NCBI GenBank assembly: GCA_963976765.1
Contig: CAXBME010000005.1
Coordinates: 62,001 to 126,000, forward strand
Direction of reading: 5' to 3'
DNA: 64,000 bases
Origin: an uncultured Planctomycetaceae bacterium
GTDB lineage: Bacteria > Planctomycetota > Planctomycetia > Planctomycetales > Planctomycetaceae
Positions 9,534 to 36,731 of the stretch are shown here, piece by piece; position 1 is the stretch's first letter; each line of letters starts with the position of its first letter. A program made the translations under genes and the position numbers. The notes under the pieces were generated by a model. That model searched no databases. It saw only the letters and a list, made by a program, of their open reading frames with translations, and had not been told where the DNA came from.

Positions 9534-9550
9534 CCGCTGGAAGTAACACC

Positions 9551-13300: not shown

Positions 13301-13302
13301 GC

Positions 13303-17366: not shown

Positions 17367-17421
17367 GGTAACACACTTTCACGTCCCGTGGTAACGAAGT
17401 GATTCGGGAGAAGGAGAAGAC

Positions 17422-18183: not shown

Positions 18184-18228
18184 ACGCGTATTACATCCCC
18201 GGTCTAGAACACTACTTGAGAATTGTTG

Positions 18229-20367
18229 ATGACTGGTTTTGACCAATTGCATCCCGCCCTGCAGCACCACATCGTCAACAGCCTCGGCTGGCGTGAGCTG
18301 CGACCGTTTCAGGATGCCGTCATCCCGCAGGTGCTCGACGGCAAGCACCTGATCGTGCTCGCACCGACGGCTGGCGGTAAGACGGAAGCGGCGTTCTTTC
18401 CGGTTATGTCGCGAGCGTTGTCCGAAGGCTGGTCTGGCCTGAGCATGCTCTACATCTGCCCGATCAAGGCGCTGCTCAACAATCTGGACTTCCGCCTGCA
18501 GCGCTACACCACGCTGCTGGGGCGACAGTCGGCGGTCTGGCACGGGGACATCAAGCCATCGGCCCGCAAGCGAATTCTGCGCGAGCCGCCCGACTGCCTG
18601 CTGACGACGCCCGAGTCGCTGGAAGTCATGCTGGACTCTCCCAACGTGGATGACCGGCGGCTGTTCGCCAACCTGCAGGTCGTCATCATCGACGAAATTC
18701 ACGCCTTCGCCGGTGACGACCGTGGCTGGCATCTGCTGGCCGTGCTGGAACGCATCAGCCGCTTGGCGGGACGCGAACTGCAGCGAATCGGGCTGTCGGC
18801 CACAGTCGGGAATCCCGAGATGCTCGCCGACTGGCTGGCAGGATCGTGCAAGGGGACGCGTGATGTGTTTCTGCCGGCTGACTCAGGACCGGGCGAAGCG
18901 GACGTGACGCTCGATTACGTCGCATCGCTGCAGAACGCCGCCGTGGTGATCAGTCGCCTGCATCGCGGCGAGAAGCGGCTCGTCTTCATGGACAGCCGAG
19001 CCCGCGCCGAACAGCTTGGGACCGAACTGCGAAGTCTCAGCGTGCGGACGTACGTGACGCACAGCTCGCTCAGCCCGGAACAACGCAGGCAGGCGGAAGA
19101 AGCCTTCGCGACGCAGGACGACTGCGTCATCGTCGCCACCAGTGTGCTCGAACTGGGCATCGACGTCGGTGACCTGGACCGGGTCATCCAGATCGACGCT
19201 CCCGGCACGGTCGCCAGCTTTCTGCAGCGTATGGGTCGCACGGGACGTCGAGCGGGCAGTCCTCGCAACTGCCTGTTTCTGGCCACGCGAGACGAGTCGC
19301 TGATTCAGGCGGCCGGCCTGATCGACCTGTGGCAGACCGGCTTTGTCGAGCCCATCGTTCCGCCACCGCATCCCTGTCACATCGTCGCTCAGCAGTTGAT
19401 GGCGTTGACGCTGCAGGAAGGGGGCATTGGACGACGGGACTGGTTCCGCTGGATCGAGGGAGTGTCTGGTTTCGCGGCCATCCCGCCGGAGCAGATCGAG
19501 CGGATCGTGGATGGGATGCTGGCCAGCGATATCCTCTGGGATGAAGACGGCATCCTCGGCATGGGCCGCGAAGGCGAAGACACTTTCGGTCGCCAGCACT
19601 TTCTGGAGCTGTTCTCGGTCTTCATGTCGCCGCCCCTGTTCGCGATCCGGCACGGACGAGCAGACCTCGGCTTCGTGGACGAGATGACGTTCCTGAGCCG
19701 CCAGGAGGGAGCACGAGTCCTGCTGCTGGGTGGTCGAGCCTGGCAGGTGACACACATCGACTGGCAGCGCAAGGTCGCGTTCGTCGAGCCCAGCGAACAG
19801 AAAGGACGCTCCCGCTGGTTAGGAACCGCGCCCGGCCTGGGGTTTCATCTGTGTCAGGCGATCCAGCGAGTGCTCGCATCTGACGAGCCCCAGACTTGCT
19901 GGTCGCAACGAGCGATCGACCGCCTGACAGAACTTCGTGCCGGCTACTCGTGGCTGGTTCCTGCGGCGTCGTCTTCAAGTGATGAGTCAGCCTCAAACGT
20001 CCCGGTCATCCTCCAGGAGGCGGACGACAGCGTCTCCTGGTGGACGTTCAGCGGGTCTGGTGGCAACGCGACCGTCGCGGCCGAGTTGGCAAAGCTGCTG
20101 CAGAGCCGCGTGGACCACGACTGCTTCAAACTCGACTTCGAGTCGTATGTGACGACCGAGCAACTAACTGCCGCCATTCAACAGCTCAAGGAAGTCCCTT
20201 CGAAGCAGCTGCGACCCACTATCGACGATGAAGCCATCACCGCCCTGAAGTTTTCCGAGTGCATCCCGCTCGACCTCGCAGTGGACATGCTGGCCCGGCG
20301 TCTTCACGACGAAGAAGCAACAGACTTTTTAACCCGTGCCACCGCTCGCACCGTCATCCTGCACTGA
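18229..20367 (+). CDS. brxHI: BREX-2 Lhr-like DEAD/DEAH helicase BrxHI
   Basis: APTAGGKT, DEIH, SAT, LELGIDVG, QRMGRTGR. Confidence 0.88.
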   Translation: MTGFDQLHPALQHHIVNSLGWRELRPFQDAVIPQVLDGKHLIVLAPTAGGKTEAAFFPVMSRALSEGWSGLSMLYICPIKALLNNLDFRLQRYTTLLGRQSAVWHGDIKPSARKRILREPPDCLLTTPESLEVMLDSPNVDDRRLFANLQVVIIDEIHAFAGDDRGWHLLAVLERISRLAGRELQRIGLSATVGNPEMLADWLAGSCKGTRDVFLPADSGPGEADVTLDYVASLQNAAVVISRLHRGEKRLVFMDSRARAEQLGTELRSLSVRTYVTHSSLSPEQRRQAEEAFATQDDCVIVATSVLELGIDVGDLDRVIQIDAPGTVASFLQRMGRTGRRAGSPRNCLFLATRDESLIQAAGLIDLWQTGFVEPIVPPPHPCHIVAQQLMALTLQEGGIGRRDWFRWIEGVSGFAAIPPEQIERIVDGMLASDILWDEDGILGMGREGEDTFGRQHFLELFSVFMSPPLFAIRHGRADLGFVDEMTFLSRQEGARVLLLGGRAWQVTHIDWQRKVAFVEPSEQKGRSRWLGTAPGLGFHLCQAIQRVLASDEPQTCWSQRAIDRLTELRAGYSWLVPAASSSSDESASNVPVILQEADDSVSWWTFSGSGGNATVAAELAKLLQSRVDHDCFKLDFESYVTTEQLTAAIQQLKEVPSKQLRPTIDDEAITALKFSECIPLDLAVDMLARRLHDEEATDFLTRATARTVILH

Positions 20368-20705
20368 CCGTCCATCACTCCAAAGGCGTGCAGGCATACA
20401 GCTCCGACGTGCGACGAAAGTCGGTCATCACAACTGGAATGTTGCAAGTGTATAGACGGCGTGCTGCCGTGTGAGTCGTTGTCAGGGCGGTCGAGCATGG
20501 GACCCGGCGGAAAAACGCGAAGGCCACTCGTCCAGGGATCGCATGTGTCGGCAAGGCGTCTTCCATCGTCAATTCTCATAATCTTTGAGTTCAGCGCGAA
20601 CAATTCGGGCCTGTCGCGCATCTAAACCCCGCAAGCACGGCGAAGTCACTCGACACCGTCGCATTCACAAGTCAGCAGACAACCAATAATCCGGGAACAA
20701 GCGAG

Positions 20706-20804
20706 ATGATGGTTTTCAGGTCAGGACTCATTAGCGAACAGAGCGGTTATGGACGATTTGCCGATCAATCGGCGAATACGTTGCCGTGCCCCCTGCGATT
20801 GTGA
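20706..20804 (+). CDS. Putative 32-aa leader peptide MMVFRSGLISEQSGYGRFADQSANTLPCPLRL
   Basis: Short ORF whose stop overlaps the antiterminator strand upstream of a terminator; RBS weak. Confidence 0.5.
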   Translation: MMVFRSGLISEQSGYGRFADQSANTLPCPLRL

Positions 20805-20864
20805 CATCTGGCCTGCCTCTCTCTCTGATTGCATAGCCCGGTGTCACTGACATCGGGCTTTTTT
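20801..20864 (+). promoter_or_regulatory. Attenuator: antiterminator (20801-20812/20836-20847) competing with intrinsic terminator
   Basis: GTGACATCTGGC pairs 11/12 with GCCCGGTGTCAC, which is also the terminator 5' strand. Confidence 0.65.
20835..20864 (+). terminator. Intrinsic terminator just before tRNA array
   Basis: AGCCCGGTGTC-ACT-GACATCGGGCT then T-run. Confidence 0.85.
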
Positions 20865-20892
20865 CGTGGACTCATGCAATTCACGACTCAGC

Positions 20893-20964
20893 GGGTCGGT
20901 AGCTGAGATGGTTTAGCGACGGTCTGAAGAACCGTAGACGAGGATTCAAGCGCCTCTCGACCCA
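20893..20964 (+). tRNA. tRNA-Phe(GAA), imperfect T-arm
   Basis: Acceptor GGGTCGG/TCGACCC; ACGGT-CTGAAGA-ACCGT. Confidence 0.75.
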
Positions 20965-20992
20965 CTTGCGCATCTGATGCGCACTCGCACAT

Positions 20993-21066
20993 GCCCCGTT
21001 CTTCTAATGGCTCAGGATGCTGGTCTTTCAAGCCGGCGATGCCGGGTTCAATTCCCGCACGGGGTA
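20993..21066 (+). tRNA. tRNA-Glu(TTC)
   Basis: Cloverleaf; loop CTTTCAA. Confidence 0.85.
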
Positions 21067-21072
21067 CTACAT

Positions 21073-21145
21073 GGCCTGTTAGTGAAACTGGACATCACGA
21101 GACGCTTCGAACGTCTTATTCCGGGTTCGAATCCTGGGCGGGCTA
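21073..21145 (+). tRNA. tRNA-Arg(TCG)
   Basis: AGACG-CTTCGAA-CGTCT; TTCGAAT T-loop. Confidence 0.9.
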
Positions 21146-21152
21146 CTTACAA

Positions 21153-21225
21153 CGGGATGAAGGGGAGTTGGCGCCCCGCCTGGTTTGGGACCAGGAGATC
21201 GCAGGTTCGAATCCTGTCATCCCGA
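21153..21225 (+). tRNA. tRNA-Pro(TGG)
   Basis: CCTGG-TTTGGGA-CCAGG; C1-G72, A73. Confidence 0.9.
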
Positions 21226-21243
21226 CTGACGAAGACTCAACAC

Positions 21244-21316
21244 AGCCCGGTCGTTCAACGGTCGAGGACGCCGTTCTGATAAGGCGGAGACGAAGGTTCG
21301 ACTCCTTCTCGGGCTA
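21244..21316 (+). tRNA. tRNA-Ile(GAT)
   Basis: Loop CTGATAA; cloverleaf. Confidence 0.88.
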
Positions 21317-21395
21317 CTTGAAATTCACACAGACAATACCCGGAGCCTGACATGCCGACGCTGCATCGATTGAAACAGATACCCACTCCTCGCAC

Positions 21396-21467
21396 GAGGT
21401 CGTGGTGTAACGGCAGCACAGCAGACTTTTAATCTGCACGGCGAGGGTTCGAATCCCTCCGACCTCA
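21396..21467 (+). tRNA. tRNA-Lys(TTT)
   Basis: GCAGA-CTTTTAA-TCTGC. Confidence 0.9.
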
Positions 21468-21486
21468 TTGAGCAACACGAGGCACA

Positions 21487-21558
21487 CGGCCCGTAGCTCA
21501 AGGGTGAGAGCAGGCTCCTTATAAGGGCACGACGACGGTTCGACTCCGTCTGGGCCGA
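21487..21558 (+). tRNA. tRNA-Ile(TAT), rare anticodon
   Basis: Loop CTTATAA; A73; canonical D and T arms. Confidence 0.85.
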
Positions 21559-21572
21559 CTGAGAGAAGAACC

Positions 21573-21821
21573 ATGAAACGCACAATTTACAGGCAATGCG
21601 AAGTCCGTCGCGGACCGGCATTCCGGCTGACTTGGATACCGGCATCGTTCGCGGTCAACGGCAAGATGCTGAATTTGCGTGACAACGGTGAGTGGTCCGA
21701 TGGCTGGGTCGTCACCGAAGTCTATCCGGACACCGAGCGGATCATCACGCCGACTCCGCAGAGTGAAATCAGACGTCACCGAAGAGCAACGGGAGACTCG
21801 CTTCCGCGGCTCGCCAAGTAA
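21573..21821 (+). CDS. 82-aa hypothetical protein embedded in tRNA array
   Basis: Fills gap between two tRNAs, purine-rich RBS, Trp-rich sequence. Confidence 0.65.
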   Translation: MKRTIYRQCEVRRGPAFRLTWIPASFAVNGKMLNLRDNGEWSDGWVVTEVYPDTERIITPTPQSEIRRHRRATGDSLPRLAK

Positions 21822-21827
21822 CAACAC

Positions 21828-21900
21828 GGGATCGAGGTGTTAGCGGCAGCACATCCGGCTCTTAACCGGACAGGTGAGGGTTCGAGCCCCTCCGATCCTA
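21828..21900 (+). tRNA. tRNA-Lys(CTT)
   Basis: TCCGG-CTCTTAA-CCGGA. Confidence 0.9.
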
Positions 21901-21911
21901 CTCGACGACCA

Positions 21912-21983
21912 GCACTGGTCGTTCAGCGGCAAGGACACCGCACTCGTAATGCGGCAACGTGGGTTCGAGTCCCACCCGGTGCT
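21912..21983 (+). tRNA. tRNA-Thr(CGT)
   Basis: CCGCA-CTCGTAA-TGCGG. Confidence 0.9.
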
Positions 21984-22016
21984 CTGTAGTTCTTTGACAA
22001 TTGGTTCATTTCATCA

Positions 22017-22087
22017 GCGCCCATGATGTAGCGGCAGCCTACTGCCTTGCCATGGCGGAAGTGCGGGTTCGACTCCCGCTGGGCGCT
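22017..22087 (+). tRNA. tRNA-Gly(GCC)
   Basis: Loop TTGCCAT; U73. Confidence 0.85.
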
Positions 22088-22114
22088 CTCGGCATACATT
22101 GAGTCTGCACTTAT

Positions 22115-22205
22115 CAGGGCGTGGGAAAGTCTGGCCCCTTTTTGTTTTGAACAGGTCGAGTGCTTCGTGAGCACGAGATCGTCGGTTCAAATCCGGCCGT
22201 CCTGA
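22115..22205 (+). pseudogene. tRNA-Pro-bodied gene with element in D-arm and CGT anticodon
   Basis: CAGGGCG/CGTCCTG-A acceptor and T-arm intact; D-arm 3' half replaced (22135-22158); loop TTCGTGA. Confidence 0.7.
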
Positions 22206-22235
22206 CTGCGGCTTCGGCCGCGACATAAACAACAT

Positions 22236-22310
22236 TGCGGTGGTGCTCGTGCTGGTACGGGCAGGCGGCTGTTAACCGTTTTGACGCAGGTTCGATTCCT
22301 GCCACCGCAG
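22236..22310 (+). tRNA. tRNA-Asn(GTT)
   Basis: Loop CTGTTAA; U1-A72, G73. Confidence 0.85.
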
Positions 22311-22316
22311 CTTTGG

Positions 22317-22402
22317 GGAAGTCATCCGGCTGGATGAGGAGCCTGCCTCGAAAGCAGGTGAGGGCAAATTGTCCGTTGTGGGTTCGAGTCCCACGGCTTC
22401 CG
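22317..22402 (+). tRNA. tRNA-Ser(CGA)
   Basis: CCTGC-CTCGAAA-GCAGG; long variable arm; G73. Confidence 0.85.
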
Positions 22403-22418
22403 CTTCGTGAAACAACAC

Positions 22419-22490
22419 GTGCCCTTGGCCGAGCGGCAAAGGTTCCAGGCTTCCAACCTGGCGAGGCGGGTTCGACTCCCGCAGGGCACT
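22419..22490 (+). tRNA. tRNA-Gly(TCC)
   Basis: CCAGG-CTTCCAA-CCTGG; U73. Confidence 0.9.
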
Positions 22491-22498
22491 CTCTTCAT

Positions 22499-22570
22499 TG
22501 CGGGGTGTCTGTTGGTCGACCGGCGTGGCTTTGAACCACGTCGACGCGGGTTCGATTCCTGCACCCGCAA
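22499..22570 (+). tRNA. tRNA-Gln(TTG), atypical D-arm
   Basis: CGTGG-CTTTGAA-CCACG; U1-A72. Confidence 0.75.
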
Positions 22571-22599
22571 CTTCGATGACGGCTCGAACAGGAATCCAA

Positions 22600-22670
22600 T
22601 GCGGGATCGTTCAATGGCAGGACGCGGCGCTCTGAACGCCGTAATGCTGGTTCGAGTCCAGCTCCCGCAA
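22600..22670 (+). tRNA. tRNA-Gln(CTG)
   Basis: CGGCG-CTCTGAA-CGCCG. Confidence 0.9.
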
Positions 22671-22735
22671 CTGCGGCACTGCCGCTTTGTTCGAGCTACC
22701 GCTCGGATGAGCGATCCAGCGTCGAGAGCAACTAC

Positions 22736-22819
22736 GGAAGTCAACCGGCCGGATGAGGAGCCTGTCTTGAAAACAGGTGCGGGGTTAGCCCGTTGTGGGT
22801 TCAAGTCCCACGGCTTCCG
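22736..22819 (+). tRNA. tRNA-Ser(TGA)
   Basis: CCTGT-CTTGAAA-ACAGG; long variable arm; paralog of Ser(CGA). Confidence 0.85.
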
Positions 22820-22837
22820 CCTTCTAAAGAACAAGAC

Positions 22838-22910
22838 GGTCCTGTGGCCCAGCGGCGAGGGCAGCTCCCTTACAAGGAGACGATCGGTGGTTCGAGTCCA
22901 CCCAGGATCA
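22838..22910 (+). tRNA. tRNA-Val(TAC)
   Basis: Loop CTTACAA. Confidence 0.88.
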
Positions 22911-22921
22911 CTTCACGACAT

Positions 22922-22994
22922 GGCACCGTAGCCCAACGGCAGAGGCGGTCGTCTCAAACGCGACGAAGTGTGAGTTCGAATCTCACCGGTGCCA
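22922..22994 (+). tRNA. tRNA-Leu(CAA), short variable arm
   Basis: GTCGT-CTCAAAC-GCGAC; 5-nt V loop GAAGT. Confidence 0.85.
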
Positions 22995-23014
22995 CTTGAA
23001 GCAAAACACAACAT

Positions 23015-23089
23015 GCCCTCGCAGAGCAGCCAGGAGTGCTCGCCATCCTGTCACGATGGAGATCGTCGGTTCGAATCCGATCGGGGGTG
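23015..23089 (+). tRNA. tRNA-Asp(GTC)
   Basis: CCATC-CTGTCAC-GATGG; G73. Confidence 0.88.
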
Positions 23090-23122
23090 CTTGTCACAAA
23101 CGGAAAAAGAAAAAGAACTTTC

Positions 23123-23195
23123 GACGCGGTAGCCCAATGGGAGAGGCAACCGGTTTAAGCCCGGTCCAGTGTGGGTTCGACTCCCACCCGCGTCA
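23123..23195 (+). tRNA. tRNA-Leu(TAA), short variable arm
   Basis: ACCGG-TTTAAGC-CCGGT; V loop CCAGT. Confidence 0.85.
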
Positions 23196-23214
23196 TTCAC
23201 ACAGCAATCACGAC

Positions 23215-23285
23215 GGCCCATTCGTCTAGCGGCAGGATGCCAGGTTCTCAGCCTGGAGACGGGAGTTCGATTCTCCCATGGGTCA
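23215..23285 (+). tRNA. tRNA-Glu(CTC)
   Basis: CCAGG-TTCTCAG-CCTGG. Confidence 0.9.
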
Positions 23286-23301
23286 CTCAGTAGCAAGACA
23301 T

Positions 23302-23375
23302 GGCACCGTAGCCCAATTAGTAGAGGCGTCTGGCTTAGGACCAGAAGGTTGAGAGTTCGAATCTCTCCGGTGCTA
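23302..23375 (+). tRNA. tRNA-Leu(TAG), short variable arm
   Basis: TCTGG-CTTAGGA-CCAGA; V loop AGGTT. Confidence 0.85.
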
Positions 23376-23395
23376 TTCACAAAAGAATCCAACAC

Positions 23396-23477
23396 GCGTC
23401 GGCTGGGCACTGGTGAGCCCACGTGGCTGTAACCCACACGCCGAAAGGCTTTGGCGGTTCAACTCCGTCCCGACGCA
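23396..23477 (+). tRNA. tRNA-Tyr(GTA)
   Basis: Loop CTGTAAC; long V arm GCC-GAAA-GGC. Confidence 0.88.
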
Positions 23478-23496
23478 CTCGACATCTCATGAATAC

Positions 23497-23569
23497 GGTG
23501 GCGTAGTGTCAATGGCGAGCACGACGGATCGTCGATCCGTTAGAGCGGGTTCGAGGCCCGTCGTCACCG
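23497..23569 (+). tRNA. Atypical tRNA, anticodon GTC (Asp-like, C33)
   Basis: ACGGA-TCGTCGA-TCCGT; GGTGGCG/CGTCACC, G73. Confidence 0.65.
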
Positions 23570-23589
23570 TCGCGTTTAGACAGCAACAT

Positions 23590-23672
23590 GACCAGGTGGT
23601 GGAACGGTAGACACGCGACGCTCAGAACGTCGTGCCCTTTGAGGCATGGGAGTTCGAATCTCCCTCTGGTCA
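23590..23672 (+). tRNA. tRNA-Leu(CAG), long variable arm
   Basis: CGACG-CTCAGAA-CGTCG. Confidence 0.9.
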
Positions 23673-23677
23673 CTGAC

Positions 23678-23768
23678 GAGTTGAAAGTTGCGAGTGCAGA
23701 GTGGAGAGATTCGGCGAACCTGATCGTCGACCGCTGACTCTCAACTCGGAACCTTCAACACTCAACTC
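23678..23768. repeat. Heptamer-repeat inverted hairpin spacer
   Basis: GAGTTGA-type units opposite TCAACTC-type units. Confidence 0.65.
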
Positions 23769-23770
23769 AT

Positions 23771-23840
23771 TGCAGGTGCGGCAGGTGCCCAGTTGGCTCT
23801 CATAAGGCCGGCCTCCCCGGCTCGATACCGGGACCTGCAA
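23771..23840 (+). tRNA. Atypical tRNA-Met/Ile2(CAT), mini D-arm
   Basis: TGCAGGT/ACCTGCA; loop CTCATAA; T-loop CTCGATA. Confidence 0.65.
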
Positions 23841-23863
23841 CTTTTCAAACAGAAACAACACAT

Positions 23864-23931
23864 CGCGGGTGGGCGAGGCTCATCGGGGTTTCATAAGCCT
23901 CGACAACCGGGTGCGACTCCCGGACCCGCTA
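23864..23931 (+). tRNA. Atypical initiator-like tRNA-Met(CAT), mini D-arm
   Basis: CGCGGGT/ACCCGCT with C1:T72 mismatch; loop TTCATAA; T-loop TGCGACT. Confidence 0.65.
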
Positions 23932-23940
23932 CTTCCAAGA

Positions 23941-24019
23941 GAGTCGAGAGCTGAGTGCCCAGAGTCGAGAGACAGCCTCGTTGCTGGTCCCTGGACTCTC
24001 GTCTCTCAACTCTGGACTC
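23941..24019. repeat. Heptamer-repeat inverted hairpin spacer
   Basis: GAGTCGA/GAGCTGA units opposite CTGGACT/CTCAACT units. Confidence 0.65.
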
Positions 24020-24024
24020 AACCC

Positions 24025-24096
24025 GACTCCGTGGTCCAACGGCAACGACACCTGCGTGACATGCAGGAGACGATGGTTCAACTCCGTCCGGGGTCA
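24025..24096 (+). tRNA. tRNA-Val(GAC)
   Basis: CCTGC-GTGACAT-GCAGG (G32). Confidence 0.85.
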
Positions 24097-24115
24097 CTTG
24101 AGCTGAAGTAAGAAT

Positions 24116-24186
24116 GGTCTGCAGGTGTTTCGGCGGCACACCGCTGTGGTAAGGCGGAAGGCCGGGTTCAATTCCCGGGCGGACCT
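24116..24186 (+). tRNA. tRNA-Thr(GGT)
   Basis: CCGCT-GTGGTAA-GGCGG (G32). Confidence 0.85.
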
Positions 24187-24205
24187 CTTGAAGAGAAGAC
24201 GACAC

Positions 24206-24276
24206 GGGCTGCTCGTCCAATGGGAAGACGCCTGGCTTGCAACCAGGTAATCGGGGTTCGACTCCCCGGCGGTCCA
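24206..24276 (+). tRNA. tRNA-Ala(TGC)
   Basis: G3:U70; CCTGG-CTTGCAA-CCAGG. Confidence 0.9.
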
Positions 24277-24288
24277 CTTGATGACAAC

Positions 24289-24359
24289 GGGGTCATGGTC
24301 CAACGGGACGACTCCAGCATGGCATGCTGGCAATCCGGGTTCGATTCCCGGTGACTCCA
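24289..24359 (+). tRNA. tRNA-Ala(GGC)
   Basis: G3:U70; CCAGC-ATGGCAT-GCTGG. Confidence 0.9.
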
Positions 24360-24367
24360 CTCGATAC

Positions 24368-24453
24368 GGAAGGTAGCCGGATACGGTTGGCCGGACCGCA
24401 CTGCTAATGCGTGTGCCTTTACGGGCGTGTGAGTTCGAATCTCATGCCTTCCG
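24368..24453 (+). tRNA. tRNA-Ser(GCT)
   Basis: Loop CTGCTAA; long V arm; G73. Confidence 0.85.
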
Positions 24454-24462
24454 CTTTGATAT

Positions 24463-24551
24463 GGCCTGATGGTGAAACGGAAATCATCCCTCGCTTCTAA
24501 CGAGGCCCCGTCTCGTTTGTAACAGGGCGGGTTCGAATCCTGGTCGGGCTA
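24463..24551 (+). tRNA. tRNA-Arg(TCT) with 21-nt element in variable loop
   Basis: CCTCG-CTTCTAA-CGAGG; V region 24506-24526 versus 4 nt in paralog Arg(TCG). Confidence 0.75.
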
Positions 24552-24582
24552 CTGAGAAGACAAGCCGCCTGTTGCGGCAAAA

Positions 24583-24690
24583 GGAAGGGCAACCCGATGG
24601 GTGACGGGAACCGGTTGGAAGCCGGTCGAGTGCGTTGACGCGTGCCTTGCGAGTTCGACTCGGGCACCGCCCGCAGGGTGGTCCCTTCCG
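24583..24690 (+). pseudogene. tRNA-Ser(GGA) with hairpin element in T-stem
   Basis: ACCGG-TTGGAAG-CCGGT; acceptor intact; 24662-24680 interrupts 3' T-stem. Confidence 0.75.
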
Positions 24691-24692
24691 CT

Positions 24693-24768
24693 GTGGCCGG
24701 GTCCGGTGCTGGTTTCCGGAGACAGACTGTGAATCTGTTCGTCGTCGGTTCAATTCCGATCGGCCACC
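24693..24768 (+). tRNA. tRNA-His(GTG), no encoded G-1
   Basis: ACAGA-CTGTGAA-TCTGT; C73; base -1 is T. Confidence 0.85.
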
Positions 24769-24865
24769 TCCAAACCGAGCGTTTGGATCGGATTGCCGTA
24801 GGGGAGCGTCACCAGATTGGGACGCCGCTACGGCGAGTGAGTTTTATGAGCAAAGGACTGGATCG

Positions 24866-25462
24866 ATGGTTGCTGCTGTACTTGATCGACCAACGCTGGT
24901 GCTGAATCGCAACTGGCAGCCTGTCGGCGTCGCCACGGTTGCGAAGGCGCTGACGAAGGTCTGGAACGAGTCGGCGCGGATCGTCGATCCTGCTGACTAC
25001 CAGCAATACACATGGCAGGACTGGGCACAACTGCGACCGGAAGACGGCGATCTGTTCATTCAGACTCGTCGATTCCAGTTGCGGGTTCCGGAGGTTGTCA
25101 CACTGACGAAGTACGACCGCCTGCCGACGAACTCGGTGATGTTCAGCCGGCGAAATGTCTTCAAGCGAGACAAGTTCACGTGCCAGTATTGCGGTGCTCG
25201 ACCAGGCAGCGAGGAATTGACGATCGACCACGTCACGCCGAGGGCTCAGGGTGGAACATCCACCTGGGTCAACTGTGTGCTGGCGTGCATCGGCTGCAAC
25301 TCGCGCAAGGCTGACCGGACTCCGGAGCAGGCTCGGATGCCGCTGCGATCAAAGCCGGTTCGGCCGACGTGGCGACCGCTGTACGCGGCTCGCGGAGTCC
25401 GCATCGAAAGCTGGTCACGTTTCGTTAGCGAGAGCTACTGGAACATAGAACTGAGTGAGTGA
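24866..25462 (+). CDS. HNH endonuclease
   Basis: TLVLN N-terminus, RDKFTCQYCG, LTIDHV.P, CIGCN..K; start re-assigned to MVAAV. Confidence 0.9.
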   Translation: MVAAVLDRPTLVLNRNWQPVGVATVAKALTKVWNESARIVDPADYQQYTWQDWAQLRPEDGDLFIQTRRFQLRVPEVVTLTKYDRLPTNSVMFSRRNVFKRDKFTCQYCGARPGSEELTIDHVTPRAQGGTSTWVNCVLACIGCNSRKADRTPEQARMPLRSKPVRPTWRPLYAARGVRIESWSRFVSESYWNIELSE

Positions 25463-25507
25463 CACGAGTCGCTGCCGGCCTCGGCGTTGAGGTCGGCAGC
25501 TTTACAC

Positions 25508-25577
25508 AGCGGTGTGCTCCTGGGAGAGCAGGCAGATTCCAAACCTGTCCCACGGGGTTCGACTCCTCGCACCGTTG
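25508..25577 (+). tRNA. tRNA-Trp(CCA)
   Basis: AGCGGTG/CACCGTT, G73; loop TTCCAAA. Confidence 0.8.
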
Positions 25578-25600
25578 CTGCGGCATTGCCGCATTAAGTT

Positions 25601-25691
25601 GCCGACGTGGCTCGATACAGAAAGGCGCCGGTCTTGCCCTGTCACAATTTGCAAACGGCGGATCATGCGGGTGCGAATCCTGCCGTCGGCC
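25601..25691 (+). pseudogene. tRNA-Thr(TGT)-like gene with element in anticodon loop
   Basis: GCCGACG/CGTCGGC acceptor, T-arm present; CTTG followed by 25 nt where 8 expected. Confidence 0.7.
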
Positions 25692-25696
25692 CTCAA

Positions 25697-25785
25697 GCCC
25701 AGCGGATGTGATGAACAGAATGGCGGTCTTCAATGCCCGCTGGACGAGGTTCGACGGGCGGCGCCCGAAGAATAGTCCGGCGGAA
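25697..25785 (+). pseudogene. Decayed tRNA (Arg-like body) with hairpin element after T-loop
   Basis: GGCGG..CCCGC anticodon-arm remnant, CGAGGTTCGA, then element similar to the Ser(GGA) insert. Confidence 0.5.
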
Positions 25786-25802
25786 TTTTTAATGCACAAC
25801 GC

Positions 25803-25875
25803 GTCCTCGGAGTGTGGCGGATTCGCACGCGACCCTGCGAAGGTCGAGGACCAGGTTCGATTCCTAGCGGGGACA
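25803..25875 (+). tRNA. tRNA-Arg(GCG), rare anticodon
   Basis: CGACC-CTGCGAA-GGTCG. Confidence 0.88.
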
Positions 25876-25894
25876 CTTTTCATTTCGACAACAC

Positions 25895-25966
25895 GACACC
25901 GATGCTCGATGGTCGGGCGGCTGCCTGCAAAGCAGCTCATAGTGAGTTCGATTCTCACCGGTGTCT
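25895..25966 (+). tRNA. tRNA-Cys(GCA)
   Basis: GCTGC-CTGCAAA-GCAGC; U73. Confidence 0.9.
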
Positions 25967-26064
25967 CTTTAATGCTTGCCTTGATGCTGTCATTGCCGGC
26001 GGTGCGTTGGGCTCAAGAGTCAGCCTGACGTATTCCGTGAACGGGTTTTGAACATGACGGTGTC

Positions 26065-26140
26065 GATGTGGTCGCCCAATTGGTAGGGCACCAGGTTTTG
26101 CACCTGGCTGTTACGGGTTCGAGTCCCGTCCACGGCTCCA
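26065..26140 (+). ncRNA. tRNA-like RNA with encoded CCA, mismatched acceptor, loop TTTTGCA
   Basis: Well-formed D arm (GCCC/GGGC), CCAGG/CCTGG stem, ACGGG-TTCGAGT-CCCGT; ends TCCA. Confidence 0.7.
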
Positions 26141-26142
26141 AC

Positions 26143-26496
26143 TCTGGCTAAGAACCAGATGAGGCCCGGGCGCGAAAGCGTCCACCAAAGACCCAAGGGA
26201 GATGGGTGACTGACTGATCGGCTGCCGGTGCCGGCATTTCGCAGTCGGACGTCGCGGCGAGAGTCGTGATTGTCGGATTGCGGGTGACGACATTCGGCGG
26301 CAGCACGAAAGGCGTGCCCTGCAGTGTGTGGATACCGCATTCGCAACCTGTGACGCGAGCAGATTGAATCGTGATGACCTGCCAAGACGCCTGTCGCCAA
26401 CGCTGGCTGATCGATGACACCTGCAAACCTCACAGGACGAGATTGCTCAAGCACACTCCGCACGGCGAAGTGTGGTCGGCAGACCTCTCATCTCCC
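26143..26496 (+). ncRNA. Large multi-helix structured RNA of unknown family
   Basis: Closing helix 26197-26206/26487-26496, internal helices, GAAA and GAGA tetraloops, no credible ORF. Confidence 0.65.
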
Positions 26497-26596
26497 AACG
26501 GTTCTTTTTAGAAACAACAACGACACGAATAGCAAAGTTTACCGCAGGCACGTGCCTGCGATTCAGAGTTCGTCACCCGATGAAAGGCGGTGGCAC

Positions 26597-27703
26597 ATGT
26601 TCCCGATCAAGACAATCCGAATTCGCAGCTACGAGATGGGACTGCGCTTCCACGACGGAGAGTTCCGCGGTCTGCTCGCTGAGGGTAAGCACCGACTGTT
26701 CGATCCACTGTGCAAGTCGCATGTCGGTGTCGTCTCGCGGCGTGATCCGTGGCTGCAGCACGAGAAGCTGGACGTCATCGTGAAGTCCGGTGCGCTAAAG
26801 GATCGCGCCATCGTTGTGGACCTCAAGGATCACGAGCGTGGTCTGGTCTCAATCGAAGGCCGCTTCAGTCATGTTCTGCCGCCGGGCCTGTACGCCTACT
26901 GGATCGGTATGAAGGATGTGCAGGTCGAGGTGATTGATGCGCGGAACGTCCGCTTCGAGCACAGCGATTTACGAGTCATCTCTCGGTCGCCGATGGTCGG
27001 GCAGGTTCTCGACATCTGCACGGTCAACCGGCAGTGTGTCGGCGTCCTGTTCATCGACGGCCGCTACATCGACACGCTCGACTCGGGTCTGTACGCGTTC
27101 TGGAAGGGAGCCGGAGACGCCAAGGTCGTCGAGATCGATCTGCGCGAGACGATGGCTGACGTCAGCGGTCAGGAGATCATGACGTTGGACAAGGTCTCGC
27201 TGCGGATGAACGCGGTCGTGACGTACCGGATCGTGGATGCACGGAAGGCCATCACAACAACCGACGATGTTCGGCAGACGCTGTACCGTGAGGTGCAGCT
27301 GGCTCTGCGGGCGGTTATCGGAGCACGCGAACTCGACTCGTTCCTGACCGACAAAGATGCGGTCGCGAGTGAGATGGAGGAACTTGTGCGGCACCGCGCC
27401 GCGGAACTTGGTCTGGAAGTCGCTTCGGTCGGAATCCGGGATGTGATTCTGCCGGGTGACATGAAGGACTTGATGAACAAGGTCACGGAGGCAAAGAAGG
27501 CCGCCGAGGCCAACCTCATCTCGCGGCGCGAAGAGACGGCCGCCATGCGCAGTCAGGCCAACACGGCCAAGGTGCTGGCGGACAACCCGACTCTGATGCG
27601 GCTCCGGGAACTGGAGGTCCTGGAAAGGATCGCCACGACCGGCAACCTGAACGTCATACTCGGCGAAAAGGGACTGGCCGACCGCGTCGTCAATCTGCTG
27701 TAA
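26597..27703 (+). CDS. Slipin-type SPFH/band-7 protein
   Basis: Repeated N-terminal L.PG.Y.W units, SPFH core (GQEIMTLDKVSLR, IRDVILPG), NPTLMRLRELE; start re-assigned to MFPIK. Confidence 0.88.
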   Translation: MFPIKTIRIRSYEMGLRFHDGEFRGLLAEGKHRLFDPLCKSHVGVVSRRDPWLQHEKLDVIVKSGALKDRAIVVDLKDHERGLVSIEGRFSHVLPPGLYAYWIGMKDVQVEVIDARNVRFEHSDLRVISRSPMVGQVLDICTVNRQCVGVLFIDGRYIDTLDSGLYAFWKGAGDAKVVEIDLRETMADVSGQEIMTLDKVSLRMNAVVTYRIVDARKAITTTDDVRQTLYREVQLALRAVIGARELDSFLTDKDAVASEMEELVRHRAAELGLEVASVGIRDVILPGDMKDLMNKVTEAKKAAEANLISRREETAAMRSQANTAKVLADNPTLMRLRELEVLERIATTGNLNVILGEKGLADRVVNLL

Positions 27704-27708
27704 CTGAG

Positions 27709-27744
27709 AACGCCCCTGGTCTGAGTCATCGGATCAGGGGCGTT
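27709..27744. terminator. Bidirectional hairpin between convergent slipin and rtcB
   Basis: AACGCCCCTGGTCTGA-GTCA-TCGGATCAGGGGCGTT. Confidence 0.75.
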
Positions 27745-27766
27745 TCTGGTTCACAGACGGTGGCCG

Positions 27767-28924
27767 CTATCGTCGCGAACCTTTGTAACTCAGAACCGGA
27801 CGCAGCTCGCGTTCGATGCGCGTCAATTCGGACTGTGCTCGCATGACTGCGTGGATGTCACGGTACGCGGACGGTGCTTCGTCTCGCAGGCCTGCCGCAA
27901 TGTTGTGGTCGAACCACACCGATCGCATTTGCTGATGCAGCGACCGGGCTGTCACCGACTTCTTTGCGTCCGTGCGACTGAAACGTCGTCCTGCGCCGTG
28001 TGAGCTGCTGCACAAGGACTGGGCATTGCCTCGGCCAGTGACGTGGAAACTCGCCGTGCCCATCGAACCGGGGATGATTCCCGGTTTGCCATCGTGAGCA
28101 CTCTGGGCGCCCTTTCTGTGGACGAGGAACTGCTGACCTCCATGTTGTTCCCGACGAACATGATTGTGGTTGCTCTGTATGAGCGTCTGTGGATCGGCTT
28201 CTACGCCGAACCGGGTATAGAGAATGTCGCTGGCGGCACTCAGCATGGCCAGTCGGTTCAACTCTGCGTACTGCGATGCCCACTCCACGTCGTTGATGTA
28301 CTCAGTCCCGGCTGGTGAGTTCGCGTCAACAAACCCAAGGCCGTTCGATTGTGAGTCACACTTGCTGATGTGAAGTGATGAGACCAACTGACCGATCCCA
28401 CGAGAGCCGCTGTGGACCATCAGCCACAGGCGTCCAGACTGATCGGCCTGGAACTCCAGGAAGTGGTTGCCTCGACCAAGTGACCCAAACTGCACGCGCG
28501 CGTCACGCTGCTTTTCCGCTTCGAGACGTGGACAACTCAGAGGACGGGCAAGCAGGTCATCGGGTAAAGATTCCGGCATCGTCTCCCGGTGATGGCGATT
28601 CGCTGGCACGTACCGATAAAGGTCGGCCAGCAGAGTTGCTGCGGCGGTTTCGTTTCCAAGGACGTCGGCATTGGCATCAAAACCGATGGCGGCCATGCCA
28701 CAGCCGATGTCACTCCCAACGGCTGCGGGGTAAAGCAGCCGGGACGTTGCAAGAACGACGCCGACGCAGACATCTCCCGCCAAGTGGACATCAGGCATGA
28801 CGGCGATGCGTTGAACGTCATCCGCCTCAGACAGACGCCGTAGTGATGTTTGCACGTCGTGACTGAGCGGTTCGGTAAGCCAGACTGGGATATCGTCTCC
28901 GGCAGTGATGTGCTTACTACTCAT
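27767..28924 (-). CDS. rtcB: RNA ligase RtcB
   Basis: MPDVH, VGSDIGCGM, GRGNHFLE, HSGSRG, HRKGA, PGSMG, HGAGR, DEAP; AGGAG RBS. Confidence 0.93.
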   Translation of the reverse strand: MSSKHITAGDDIPVWLTEPLSHDVQTSLRRLSEADDVQRIAVMPDVHLAGDVCVGVVLATSRLLYPAAVGSDIGCGMAAIGFDANADVLGNETAAATLLADLYRYVPANRHHRETMPESLPDDLLARPLSCPRLEAEKQRDARVQFGSLGRGNHFLEFQADQSGRLWLMVHSGSRGIGQLVSSLHISKCDSQSNGLGFVDANSPAGTEYINDVEWASQYAELNRLAMLSAASDILYTRFGVEADPQTLIQSNHNHVRREQHGGQQFLVHRKGAQSAHDGKPGIIPGSMGTASFHVTGRGNAQSLCSSSHGAGRRFSRTDAKKSVTARSLHQQMRSVWFDHNIAAGLRDEAPSAYRDIHAVMRAQSELTRIERELRPVLSYKGSRR

Positions 28925-29369
28925 CTTCGCTCCTATCAATCACGTCATTCGTCGCCTGGGTCGACACAATGCGGAACCTCAGCGCGGGCGCACGTTTGCG
29001 AGTGATTGAGGCAGCGACCTCGGAACGAAGCCGGCCGGCAACTCGATCCAGTCGTTCCAGCACGACGGATGGATCGGCAGGGGCTTCGAGACTGCTCTCG
29101 ATACTGACCGTCACAAGCATTTGCGAGGCGTTGGGCGCTGGGATGACAGACTCGACGATGAGCGACTGCAGCAGCTCGTCGGAAAACTCGCCAGACAGGA
29201 CCAGGCTCAGCGTCTGCTCGACCTGCTGGCAGAGCTGCTGTGTCTTGCGGTCCCGTTTGTTTCGATCCGAATGACTTTTGAAGAAGCGGCGTGGATCGAC
29301 GCCGTCGTCTTCCTGAATCTCTCCACAGCACGCGAGCATCTGCTCGCGCTGACGATTGTTGAGTGGCAT
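28917..29369 (-). CDS. RbfA-like ribosome-binding factor paralog
   Basis: RbfA-type C-terminus (GRLRSEVAASITRKRAPALRF) with extra CCGE..DDG.DPR N-terminus; overlaps rtcB start. Confidence 0.75.
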   Translation of the reverse strand: MPLNNRQREQMLACCGEIQEDDGVDPRRFFKSHSDRNKRDRKTQQLCQQVEQTLSLVLSGEFSDELLQSLIVESVIPAPNASQMLVTVSIESSLEAPADPSVVLERLDRVAGRLRSEVAASITRKRAPALRFRIVSTQATNDVIDRSEDE

Positions 29370-29456
29370 AAGGCTCTCACAAGGGAATGGCGTTGAGGCT
29401 GAAGAATTGGAAGCCACGCCGTGAGAGCTGGTCAAATCGCTGCAGACTGACCTTGG

Positions 29457-29522
29457 TCAGGAGCGATCGACGGAAAGCGTCAAGAGGGACGGCGAGGCCA
29501 GACATAGTTCAAAACATCGCAT
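29457..29522 (-). CDS. Putative 21-aa leader peptide MRCFELCLASPSLLTLSVDRS
   Basis: Strong AAGGAGG Shine-Dalgarno; upstream of rbfA-like/rtcB. Confidence 0.55.
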   Translation of the reverse strand: MRCFELCLASPSLLTLSVDRS

Positions 29523-29723
29523 GGTCGCCTCCTTCCGTCGGGGAGCAGTGTTAAAAGCGGTTCATCGTCACCGTGTGCGGCAGTGACACGGCGTCCGGCG
29601 AGGCGGTTCGCGCCGCGGCTCACTAATTTCGGCTCGCCGCCAAATCTGACGCCGGAGTGAGTCCATCCTTCGCCTCATTTGAGTAGACCGTGAGGCGTTC
29701 CCCTGACTACCTCATACACTGGA

Positions 29724-30449
29724 TCATCGCTGTCCCTTCTTTTTCGCGGAACGTTTGCTACGTCGCTGCTTTGCCGCTCTCTCACTAAGTTTACCAGCCA
29801 GCTCGCTGATCCTTGCGGCCGCTTTAGACAGTGCCTTTAGGTCCTCGCGATTCTCGCCGCACTTGGCCAGCACTCGTTCGACGACCAGCTTGCCAGTACC
29901 CGATTCGGGATCGACTTCTTCAAACAACCCGTCAAGGTACCGTTGAGCTTCGATCGTCCATCGCCGCAGGTCCTTGTACTTGAACTTTGGCCCGCCACCC
30001 TGCCTCTTCTCGCCACGAGCCTTCTGGACTTCTTCCAGCAGCAGCCTGGCACTCCAACCGTTCTTAATCGCCAGCTTCTCGCATTTCGTACGTTGCTCAA
30101 CCTGATCTCTGGAGAATGCAAGCAGCGTCCGCACGTGAGTCCAGTGCAATGGCTCCTGCGTCTCAGAATTCACGCGGCGGCGCAGTGCACGGAACTCGTT
30201 CTGCGAGTACAGACAGGCAAAGTCCAGCGTCTTGTAAAACTGATCCCGCGATATCCCGTGCTCTGCCATCAGCTTCTCGCGAGTCTCACCATCAACCCGC
30301 ACCTTCTCGCCAAGCTTGGGGCTGCCTCCGATGGAATCTTTGATCTGCCGCCCGGTTTCATAGTACCGGGCCAATTCCTCGGCGACTGCTTGGCCCCGGG
30401 TGATACCAATCTGCCTGCCAGTCAGTGCTGCCTTCTTCTTCGCCATCAT
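29724..30449 (-). CDS. Protein resembling the DUF1016/YhcG N-terminal domain only
   Basis: YYETGRQI, FACLY, LHWTHVRTLL, NGWSARLL mirror YhcG N-terminal motifs; no PD-(D/E)XK half. Confidence 0.6.
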   Translation of the reverse strand: MMAKKKAALTGRQIGITRGQAVAEELARYYETGRQIKDSIGGSPKLGEKVRVDGETREKLMAEHGISRDQFYKTLDFACLYSQNEFRALRRRVNSETQEPLHWTHVRTLLAFSRDQVEQRTKCEKLAIKNGWSARLLLEEVQKARGEKRQGGGPKFKYKDLRRWTIEAQRYLDGLFEEVDPESGTGKLVVERVLAKCGENREDLKALSKAAARISELAGKLSERAAKQRRSKRSAKKKGQR

Positions 30450-30894
30450 GCCTCTCCCTCTGTCCGTTAGTTCCGGAATCGTCACAGTTTGTGTTAGCGG
30501 TCACAGAAATGGGAGTCTCGACGCTCAGTCCGAATTCGGAACCTGCCCCTGACCATCCGCGAGATCGAGGCCAATATTCCACGCTTGATGTGTGCCGGGA
30601 GTCTGCGTCTGCAGCGGAAAATGGCTCACATGACTAAAGCAGAAACGTACTCTGCCGAGGTGGTGCCTGCCCGCCGTGCCGAGTTGCTTTGGGGCGGCAG
30701 TCAAGCTGGCCAGTTGATGTGAATCCGGCAAACGAACACCCGCCGGCAAAGCCCGCATCCGCTGGACTCACCTCGAAGGTTATGCCGACGGGCAGACTTC
30801 CCTCGCACTGAAGGGTCAGACAGCCCGCCGCTCTCAATTCCGGCTGAATCACGGGCCTCAGCAAGGCCCGGTACGGCAGGCCAATTCTCCCAAA

Positions 30895-30940
30895 GGTATC
30901 ACCGAGGGTATCACCGCCGAAAACACCGAAAGGTGTCACG
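30895..30940. repeat. GGTATCACCG direct repeats (att arm-site-like)
   Basis: Copies at 30895-30904 and 30907-30916, variant GGTGTCACG at 30932-30940. Confidence 0.55.
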
Positions 30941-30982
30941 CAATAACCCCTCGCAAGTCATGGACCTGCAAGGGGTTATGAA

Positions 30983-31056
30983 TGGACGATACTGGACTTG
31001 AACCAGTGACCTCCACGATGTCAACGTGGCGCTCTAGCCAACTGAGCTAATCGTCC
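30983..31056 (-). tRNA. tRNA-Val(GAC), canonical chromosomal type
   Basis: GGACGAT/ATCGTCC-A; CCACG-TTGACAT-CGTGG. Confidence 0.95.
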
Positions 31057-36694: not shown

Positions 36695-36731
36695 ACAACC
36701 TCTGAGACATGGCCGAATGAACAACCTCTGA
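36680..36731. repeat. Perfect 26-bp tandem duplication
   Basis: GACATGGCCGAATGAACAACCTCTGA x2. Confidence 0.9.

Follow-up and report, generated by a model that had tools for sequence, protein, structure and literature searches.

Why does a planctomycete that already possesses a complete set of dispersed transfer RNA (tRNA) genes carry 38 more of them behind a short open reading frame (ORF), together with genes for an RNA ligase and a ribosome-factor-like protein? We addressed this question for a block of about 9 kb (positions 20594-29614) in a 64,000-nucleotide (nt) stretch of contig CAXBME010000005.1 from an uncultured Planctomycetaceae bacterium; this stretch is referred to as the window, and coordinates refer to it unless another contig or locus is named. 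The block consists of two converging arms. As a preliminary description of this DNA had proposed, one arm runs through a leader ORF, a terminator, tRNA genes, an HNH nuclease gene, a tRNA-like element, a 312-nt RNA and a slipin gene, and the other through a second leader ORF and genes for an RbfA-fold protein and an RtcB ligase. We consider it rather probable that the block is a horizontally spread, supernumerary long tRNA array (L-array) with accessory cassettes, and that it serves as an inducible reserve when the translation apparatus is damaged. The core idea, that stress induces a spare set of tRNAs linked to RtcB, has already been published for cyanobacterial L-arrays, and planctomycete arrays may perhaps already be listed in the supplements of PMC8421152. 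The new content is the leader-peptide attenuator, the RbfA-like/RtcB pair, the RNA-slipin cassette and an HNH gene fixed after tRNA-His.

The genome (8.57 Mb in 95 contigs) contains a second copy of the block, part of which lies at the end of contig C27 and part at the end of contig C74. A blastn comparison of window 20594-29614 with these two contigs aligned most of the block in five segments at 82-99.6% identity, the blocks as a whole being 82-92% identical. This indicates that the duplication took in both leaders, the array with its HNH gene, the structured RNA, slipin, RtcB and the RbfA-like gene together. Either end of the block carries the GCGCGAAC motif, in copy 1 as in copy 2; it reads inward from both sides, at the points where homology between the copies begins and stops. 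The shared GCGCGAAC start of the two arms and their joint duplication suggest common transcriptional control.

The tRNA array and its leader

The features of the first arm are as follows.

20594..20626, plus strand: promoter-like motif, GCGCGAAC at 20594-20601 and then GCGCATCTAAA at 20616-20626; left end of the duplicated block
20706..20804, plus strand: leader ORF 1, 32 codons, ending in PLRL-stop; frame open, and stop at one shared TGA of the alignment, in 11 of 11 arrays
20717..20726, plus strand: attenuator segment 1, leader codons 4-7, predicted by RNAalifold to pair with segment 2
20802..20815, plus strand: attenuator segment 2, stop codon plus 11 nt, candidate antiterminator; mimics the 3' arm of the terminator and can pair with its 5' arm
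20835..20865, plus strand: intrinsic terminator, 11-bp stem followed by a T-run, three compensatory pairs
20893..26140, plus strand: long tRNA gene array, 38 genes for all 20 amino acids (ARAGORN)
24866..25462, plus strand: HNH endonuclease gene, 198 amino acids (aa), between tRNA-His and tRNA-Trp; Pfam E = 2.7e-13; start corrected to ATG 24866
26065..26140, plus strand: terminal tRNA-like element with encoded U73-CCA; its 'anticodon' varies between homologous loci
26191..26502, plus strand: structured RNA, 312 nt; RNAalifold consensus of 15 sequences with 65 pairs, 42 of them compensatory
26597..27703, plus strand: slipin/SPFH (Band 7) protein, 368 aa; Band_7 PF01145, 100.4 bits, E = 1.5e-28; start corrected to ATG 26597

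ARAGORN called 39 tRNA genes in the window, 38 of which lie head to tail on the plus strand within 5.2 kb; 26 of these 38 score above the Rfam tRNA gathering threshold. Two additional weak tRNA-like stretches occupy gaps in the array (22736-22818 and 24583-24671), so the earlier count of about 42 tRNA-like genes was approximately right. Three members look degenerate: those at 22115 and 25601 are over-long, and the one at 23496 has C33. Genome-wide, there are 122 tRNA genes, with 47 dispersed, 38 in the present array and 37 in the second array, and the 47 dispersed housekeeping tRNAs cover all 20 amino acids plus selenocysteine. Identity is 26-72% between array tRNAs and housekeeping tRNAs with the same anticodon and 89-100% between array tRNAs and their positional counterparts in copy 2. 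The 7-nt anticodon loop differs from that of the host tRNA in 26 of 35 comparable members, a count made without a control. Three anticodons found in the array are missing from the housekeeping set (Ile-UAU, Glu-CUC and Arg-GCG). CCA is encoded neither in the array tRNAs, the terminal tRNA-like element excepted, nor in the housekeeping set. In spot checks, tRNA-Ala carried G3:U70 and tRNA-His carried G-1/C73. The sole CAU tRNA of the array is paired at 1-72 and lacks the three G-C pairs of the initiator; by the rule that we assume for initiator tRNAs, the array has none.

Tens of same-strand tRNA genes with short spacers, added to a complete dispersed set and both patchy and foreign, are marks of an L-array, and these are present here; an L-array is further expected to be silent by default and to be induced when translation falters. 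The strict attenuator pattern described below occurred in two of 400 other sampled genomes of the phylum (G315 and G357), and array size varies among relatives. Judged by its sequence, the array appears to be a supernumerary, foreign, horizontally spread L-array of the Anabaena trn-operon kind.

The leader in front of the array is conserved as a reading frame. Leader ORF 1 differs between copy 1 and copy 2 at three positions, all synonymous, and third codon positions are the most variable in the alignment. At least 400 nt of 5' sequence were available for 14 arrays, namely those of this window and of copy 2 and 12 more; in 11 cases, a homologous ORF (32-40 codons, ending in LRL-stop) and a terminator stand in front of the array. 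Both elements are present in the window, copy 2, L002-L009 and L040, and absent from L016, L022 and L066. They also precede the arrays of G315 and G357, giving a total of 13 planctomycete arrays. The leader of G003 was recognized by sequence similarity only (nhmmer E = 7e-14), and an intact ORF could not be confirmed there.

In the RNAalifold consensus of 11 sequences, codons 4-7 pair with the 10 nt directly after the stop codon, and 13 of 36 consensus pairs are compensatory; the window leader sequence folds with z = -3.81 relative to shuffles. The stop codon and the bases that follow it (TGACAYYTGG) are a near copy of the 3' arm of the terminator. The resulting antiterminator pairing was possible in 89.3% of the cells scored, as against 21-45% in slid controls; L003 supplied the single compensatory triple, which the terminator compensates as well. 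The combination of a conserved leader ORF and a terminator, connected by competing pairings, has the anatomy of a ribosome-sensing switch. With its short ORF, mutually exclusive pairings and intrinsic terminator, the element can be classed as a putative attenuator. As in trpL-type attenuators, a short ORF would choose between 1:2 plus 3:4 pairing and 2:3 pairing. Unlike those, the present element has no regulatory codon run and gates tRNAs, not biosynthetic or protein-coding genes; compared with both the trpL type and PA5471.1, the end of the peptide (PLRL-stop) and the stop-codon region are conserved here. We also considered leader 1 as a sampler of all amino acids and rejected this idea, as its 32 codons specify 17 of the 20 amino acids, close to the number that we would expect by chance (approximately 16 by our estimate).

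The ATG of the leader is preceded, at a distance of approximately 112 nt, by (G)CGCGAAC and, 17-19 nt further on, by GCGTCTA or GCATCTAA. The motif is kept in nine arrays (the window, copy 2, L002, L004-L006, L008, L009 and L040), and we take it to resemble promoters of extracytoplasmic-function (ECF) sigma factors. Scanning 20300-31200 for sigma-70 promoters returned no sites. A terminator scan of the same interval returned 11 sites, compared with 9.2 expected from shuffles, which is no enrichment; among these sites, conservation backs only that at 20835.

The HNH gene within the array tracks tRNA-His. We found 533 relatives in genome contigs and kept 80 loci, in which the gene lies no more than 400 nt downstream of tRNA-His(GTG) in 24 and upstream of tRNA-Trp in 15. 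The tRNA-His-linked loci include array-less ones (L012-L014 and L017) and Chloroflexota loci (36-38% identity), and arrays without an HNH gene exist (G315, G357 and G003). On a Nostoc plasmid, an array of 21 tRNAs is directly preceded by a homologue (32% identity, E = 3e-21), in agreement with the HNH gene described next to cyanobacterial L-arrays, for which SegB-like homing has been proposed (PMC8421152; here and below, statements from the literature refer to the accessible portions of the papers cited). The HNH protein thus seems to behave like a homing endonuclease, fixed after tRNA-His, and the idea that it is an RNA-directed part of the system did not survive. We rejected a role of the structured RNA as an IscB/HEARO-type guide for two reasons: the match of the HNH protein to IscB is confined to the HNH domain and scores 48.6 bits (cut-off 175), and the RNA tracks the slipin gene and not the HNH gene. 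Among viral loci, no HNH relative exceeded 38% identity over the full length; of 80 viral HNH loci, 7 had at least three tRNAs (40 at most) and 3 had RtcB relatives. In two large phage contigs, L138 (199 kb, 37 tRNAs) and L152 (253 kb, 40 tRNAs), the tRNA genes surround a distant HNH relative, and RtcB relatives occur in the viral loci L142, L137 and L158, that of L142 being 40% identical to the window RtcB. The genome also carries a solo HNH paralogue (C25:111370-111957, 68% identity) with no tRNA nearby.

Downstream of the last canonical tRNA gene, the tRNA-like element, the structured RNA and the slipin gene follow one another. The tRNA-like element is the only member of the genome's ARAGORN set that encodes CCA, and it has an A2.G71 mismatch and C37. 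In the structured RNA, a closing helix of 20-odd bp joins 26191 to 26502 and encloses GAAA-capped hairpins. At E <= 1, Rfam models matched 20400-29800 only as members of the tRNA clan or as sub-threshold chance matches, and the structured RNA matched no family. A nhmmer profile of the structured RNA matched only in front of slipin genes. Homologues of the window slipin are annotated as 'slipin family protein', are present in 61 of the 400 genomes and number only four, all weak matches, among phages. A same-strand tRNA or tRNA-like gene lies 5' of slipin in 25 of 29 loci, with the following contents upstream of the slipin cassette.

G003: leader-like sequence and 19 tRNAs, the last being the tRNA-like element
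G190: leader remnant and 8 tRNAs
G118: 5 tRNAs
G300: 3 tRNAs
G383: 2 tRNAs
G070 and G095: only the tRNA-like element, structured RNA and slipin

This gradient of tRNA loss indicates that the cassette is the stable part and that the tRNAs erode. Together with the strong covariation, it points to the tRNA-like element, structured RNA and slipin as one cassette.

The RbfA-like/RtcB pair and its leader

The second arm lies on the opposite strand and contains four features.

27767..28924, minus strand: divergent RtcB RNA ligase, 385 aa; E = 1e-79; start corrected to ATG 28924; 8-nt overlap with the stop of the RbfA-like gene
28917..29369, minus strand: RbfA-fold protein, 150 aa, with an N-terminal C.E..DDG[VI]DPR extension; start corrected to ATG 29369
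29457..29522, minus strand: leader ORF 2, 21 codons, with a strong Shine-Dalgarno sequence, GGAAGGAGG
29606..29613, minus strand: GCGCGAAC motif at the right end of the block, reading inward, approximately 91 nt before leader ORF 2

The window protein matches RbfA weakly in Pfam, with 34.3-34.8 bits against PF02033 (cut-off 34.7), and a single-sequence search of the Protein Data Bank (PDB) with it gave no matches. An alignment of 21 family members has the N-terminal extension followed by the RbfA domain, with 20 of 21 matching PF02033, and a profile of the family retrieved only RbfA chains from the PDB (7 of 7, best E = 1.7e-6). The AlphaFold2 model (mean predicted local distance difference test score, pLDDT, 82.9) had RbfA structures as its top nine Foldseek matches, 30S-bound forms included, with target-normalised template-modelling (TM) scores of 0.65-0.83. 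The genome has a canonical rbfA on C3 (90.6 bits, compared with 29.9-35.3 bits for the three RbfA-like copies) and a canonical rtcB elsewhere (566 bits). By these scores, the array-linked RbfA-like and RtcB proteins are divergent paralogues, and the RbfA-like protein is not the housekeeping 30S maturation factor. The third RbfA-like copy is a solo paralogue (C9:105601-106023, or L122 5601-6023; 68% identity) with a 21-codon leader of its own.

The window RtcB is predicted to be catalytically intact, in line with the ligase role first ascribed to it. The metal-binding Asp, Cys and His residues and the guanosine monophosphate (GMP)-linked His are all kept in an alignment to 2epg, in columns that are invariant or nearly so among 16 sequences; we assume for these residues the roles generally attributed to them in the RtcB literature.

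An RbfA-like match was present in 46 of the 400 other genomes of the phylum, and in 14 of 29 fetched genome loci a same-strand RtcB of the window subtype follows directly. The RbfA-like stop and RtcB start overlap by 4 nt in 11 loci (8 nt in the window). We also scanned metagenomes with the RtcB alignment and kept 80 loci, four of whose close members had no upstream DNA. An RbfA-like ORF lies just upstream of RtcB in all 30 assessable close relatives and in none of the 46 distant RtcBs. These counts argue for a strict and widely conserved gene pair. A literature search for RtcB together with RbfA found no description of such a pair.

Leader ORF 2 has the same length and position in both copies of the block, in L002 and in front of the solo C9 paralogue. 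The middle of this ORF pairs over 12 bp with a stretch approximately 40 nt after its own stop codon, and a CTCTCA/TGAGAG pair could mask the start of the RbfA-like gene. ORFs of 15-28 codons with a Shine-Dalgarno sequence precede 11 of 20 other RbfA-like genes examined, again counted without a control. The control by leader peptides that was first proposed for both arms was upheld in part: conserved leaders are present in both, and that of arm 1 is wired to a terminator, while that of arm 2 pairs with downstream RNA.

Modularity, neighbours and related systems

Whether the two arms belong together was examined by synteny, with a mixed outcome: co-occurrence of HNH arrays and RtcB is rare, and partial associations exist. 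On one metagenome contig (L230, 1257-5060), an RbfA-like/RtcB pair lies inside a differently ordered array, in the same direction, with 10 tRNAs before it and five after. In L002, an RbfA-like gene alone adjoins the slipin cassette, and the 29-tRNA array of L286 encloses a more distant RtcB. The two genomes with the strict attenuator pattern, G315 and G357, have no RbfA-like match. The arms are separate modules that occur joined in this genome and, a second time, in a single metagenome array; we regard the locus as a mosaic whose modules have been drawn to spare-tRNA arrays again and again.

The preliminary description had placed the block directly beside a BREX (bacteriophage exclusion) locus, and this was correct: a complete BREX type 2 locus (PADLOC, E = 0 to 1e-207) occupies 171-20367 upstream of the block, with PglW, PglX, BrxC/PglY, PglZ, BrxD and BrxHI all present. 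Two inserted genes were seen within it, a full-length DUF1016/PDC-S02 PD-(D/E)XK gene (8436-9533) and a UPF0489 gene (17422-18183) between brxD and brxHI. Copy 2 lies directly downstream of a second defence-type locus (L120, on contig C27 of the same genome, G000; 1745-7311) with an SNF2 helicase and a PLD nuclease, which matches the PADLOC models ZacC/ZacB, PDC-M27 and DrmD/DrmC-like. A gene with only a DUF1016_N domain follows each copy (window 29724-30485, minus strand; L121 7584-8195, minus strand; 29% mutual identity, although the blocks themselves are 82-92% identical) and could be a target site or a fast-evolving neighbour. G+C content is 59-65% over most of the BREX part (1-20000) and 55-58% downstream (35000-47000), a contrast that fits an acquired island.

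Among 67 proteins scanned in the flanks of 11 related arrays, we found no integrase, capsid, other phage or BREX genes; these flanks consist of ordinary, varied genes. Adjacency to BREX is peculiar to the present genome, and adjacency to defence islands holds for both copies here, yet is not general among related arrays. Genes for Ro60 (TROVE plus von Willebrand factor A domains) lie just 3' of two related arrays (L004 11495-13204 and L007 15550-17298). In G315 (L134, 9351-10055), a few kb away from an array of 29 tRNAs led by the attenuator, there is a gene with a bacterial EndoU nuclease domain, of the type seen in toxins that cut RNA.

The closest described relative of the block is the trn operon of Anabaena sp. 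PCC 7120. In that cyanobacterium, translation inhibitors induce the trn array together with an HNH gene, rtcB, slipin and rsgA, or these genes answer to a common repressor, TrcR (PMC8421152, PMC10272220), and the slipin gene alr0740 is among the genes most de-repressed on trcR deletion (PMC10272220). Both systems have a long supernumerary array gained by horizontal transfer, a linked HNH of the same family, and RtcB, slipin and a 30S-maturation factor in the functional set. They differ in control, which is by TrcR on promoter direct repeats in Anabaena and by a putative leader-peptide/terminator attenuator here. In their accessible portions, PMC8421152 does not contain the words 'leader', 'attenuat' or 'terminator', and PMC10272220 does not contain 'leader', 'attenuat', 'uORF' or 'ribosome stalling'. 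The Anabaena genes are scattered over the genome, whereas those described here form one 9-kb block; the 30S factor is RsgA there and an RbfA paralogue here; and the HNH gene is upstream of the array there and between tRNA-His and tRNA-Trp here.

A leader peptide that gates an RtcB-family gene has a precedent in Pseudomonas aeruginosa, in which PA5471.1 controls armZ (RtcB-like)-prfH on ribosome stalling (PMC12057347). PrfH-RtcB2, which repairs colicin-E3-cut 16S ribosomal RNA (rRNA) (PMC9304027, PMC9223846, PMC13166195), likewise pairs and co-transcribes a dedicated RtcB paralogue with a ribosome-binding protein. The partner here has the RbfA fold and is not a release-factor homologue, and the window RtcB scored 148.5 bits with the NCBIfam model release_rtcB (cut-off 271.8). 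Phage and mycobacterial tRNA array units (T4 SegB; PMC5966550, PMC12803027, PMC13096335) share the dense arrays, the embedded HNH or Seg endonucleases and a proposed counter-defence role. By contrast, the present array is chromosomal and planctomycete, has no phage genes around it and has a leader attenuator and a slipin cassette.

Weighing the alternatives and a possible mechanism

Several points weigh against reading the block as one inducible back-up system. The single fixed system of the preliminary description was not borne out, because the arms are mostly found apart: RtcB lies near none of the 80 HNH loci and an RbfA-like gene near one (L002). The attenuator pattern is absent from the 46 genomes with an RbfA-like match, and the two occur together nowhere else among the 400 genomes. 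None of the 14 genome RbfA-like/RtcB pairs has a tRNA gene within 1.5 kb, and a GCGCGAAC-type promoter pattern (GAAC-N15-19-CGT[CG]T) was found before none of 40 other RbfA-like operons. With no initiator tRNA and several anticodons missing, the array could not replace the full tRNA set. Its erosion in relatives, to five, three, two or no tRNAs while the slipin cassette persists, indicates weak or episodic selection on the tRNAs. The covariation of the antiterminator amounts to one event, with most columns invariant, and no leader peptide has a regulatory codon run for any one amino acid. For arm 1, we infer induction by stalling, translation of the leader and read-through alike from the sequence. 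The separation of the arms would also be expected if two unrelated systems had landed by chance in a variable island and then been duplicated as one segment; indeed, 29 of the 30 metagenome pairs lie outside arrays, as do the 14 genome pairs, and most arrays lack the pair. We regard mere chance as quite improbable nonetheless, given the pair embedded in an unrelated array (L230), the lone RbfA-like gene beside the slipin cassette (L002), the distant RtcB inside a 29-tRNA array (L286), the Ro60 genes in L004 and L007, the joint duplication with the same GCGCGAAC motif at both ends of both copies, and the co-regulation of rtcB with the array in Anabaena.

The block might instead be selfish cargo, a phage- or plasmid-derived tRNA bank against tRNA-cleaving host defences that is maintained and amplified by the HNH endonuclease and gives the cell no regulated benefit, with defence islands being simply hot spots of gene transfer. 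The foreign character of the array tRNAs, the erosion of arrays in relatives, the position of both copies directly downstream of defence loci and the viral contigs described above (HNH relatives among the tRNA arrays of L138 and L152; RtcB relatives in L142, L137 and L158) are all compatible with this, and SegB-type endonucleases amplify tRNA anti-defence loci (PMC13096335). We nevertheless consider it unlikely: there are no integrase, capsid or other phage genes around the 11 related arrays, the viral HNH relatives are at most 38% identical over their full length, the conserved, covarying, host-type attenuator argues for regulated use, and the Anabaena array aids survival under antibiotic challenge (PMC8421152). 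Far less credible is an extra tRNA dosage for codon usage or growth, constitutive or linked to growth rate, with the upstream ORF and hairpin being no more than an ordinary terminator of the BREX operon. The three anticodons that the housekeeping set lacks would fit such a role, but the terminator lies inside the duplicated block and, together with the leader, is conserved in front of 13 arrays whose upstream genes differ, and L-arrays add redundancy rather than new anticodons (PMC8421152).

On our favoured reading of the block as an inducible back-up for damaged translation, the leader would act as follows. During fast translation, the ribosome would cover segment 2, the terminator would form and the array would be off. 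With no translation, segment 2 would stay paired to segment 1, and the terminator would again form and keep the array off. A ribosome slowed inside the leader by tRNA shortage, a ribotoxin or an antibiotic would free segment 2 for the antiterminator, and the 38 tRNAs would be transcribed; a ribosome at the leader stop codon would favour termination. The tRNA-like, structured-RNA and slipin cassette would probably be read through together with the tRNAs. Because most array tRNAs differ from those of the host in the anticodon stem-loop, they could take the place of host tRNAs that have been cleaved or depleted. The homing-type HNH endonuclease would spread or amplify the array. Arm 2 would be a separate, translationally coupled two-gene operon under the control of its own leader ORF, in which the RbfA-fold protein might, by analogy with PrfH-RtcB2, bring the catalytically intact RtcB to the 30S subunit or the 3' domain of 16S rRNA.

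A bolder proposal, which we hold with more doubt than confidence, is that the RbfA-fold protein and its dedicated RtcB are a second kind of ribosome-repair machine after PrfH-RtcB2. The protein would dock on a ribotoxin-cut 30S subunit at the 16S 3' domain and present the ends to the ligase. Coupled to leader-gated tRNAs and a slipin with its own RNA, it would form a self-contained, translation-restoring kit in defence islands.

How a cell decides when to use a spare tRNA array has been worked out only for Anabaena, in which a repressor is responsible. If the attenuator described here works as proposed, it would be a direct link from failing translation to the transcription of replacement tRNAs. 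The strict pairing of the RbfA-like gene with RtcB provides a testable new candidate for ribosome or RNA repair, and the 312-nt RNA is an unclassified structured RNA whose partner gene, slipin, is known.

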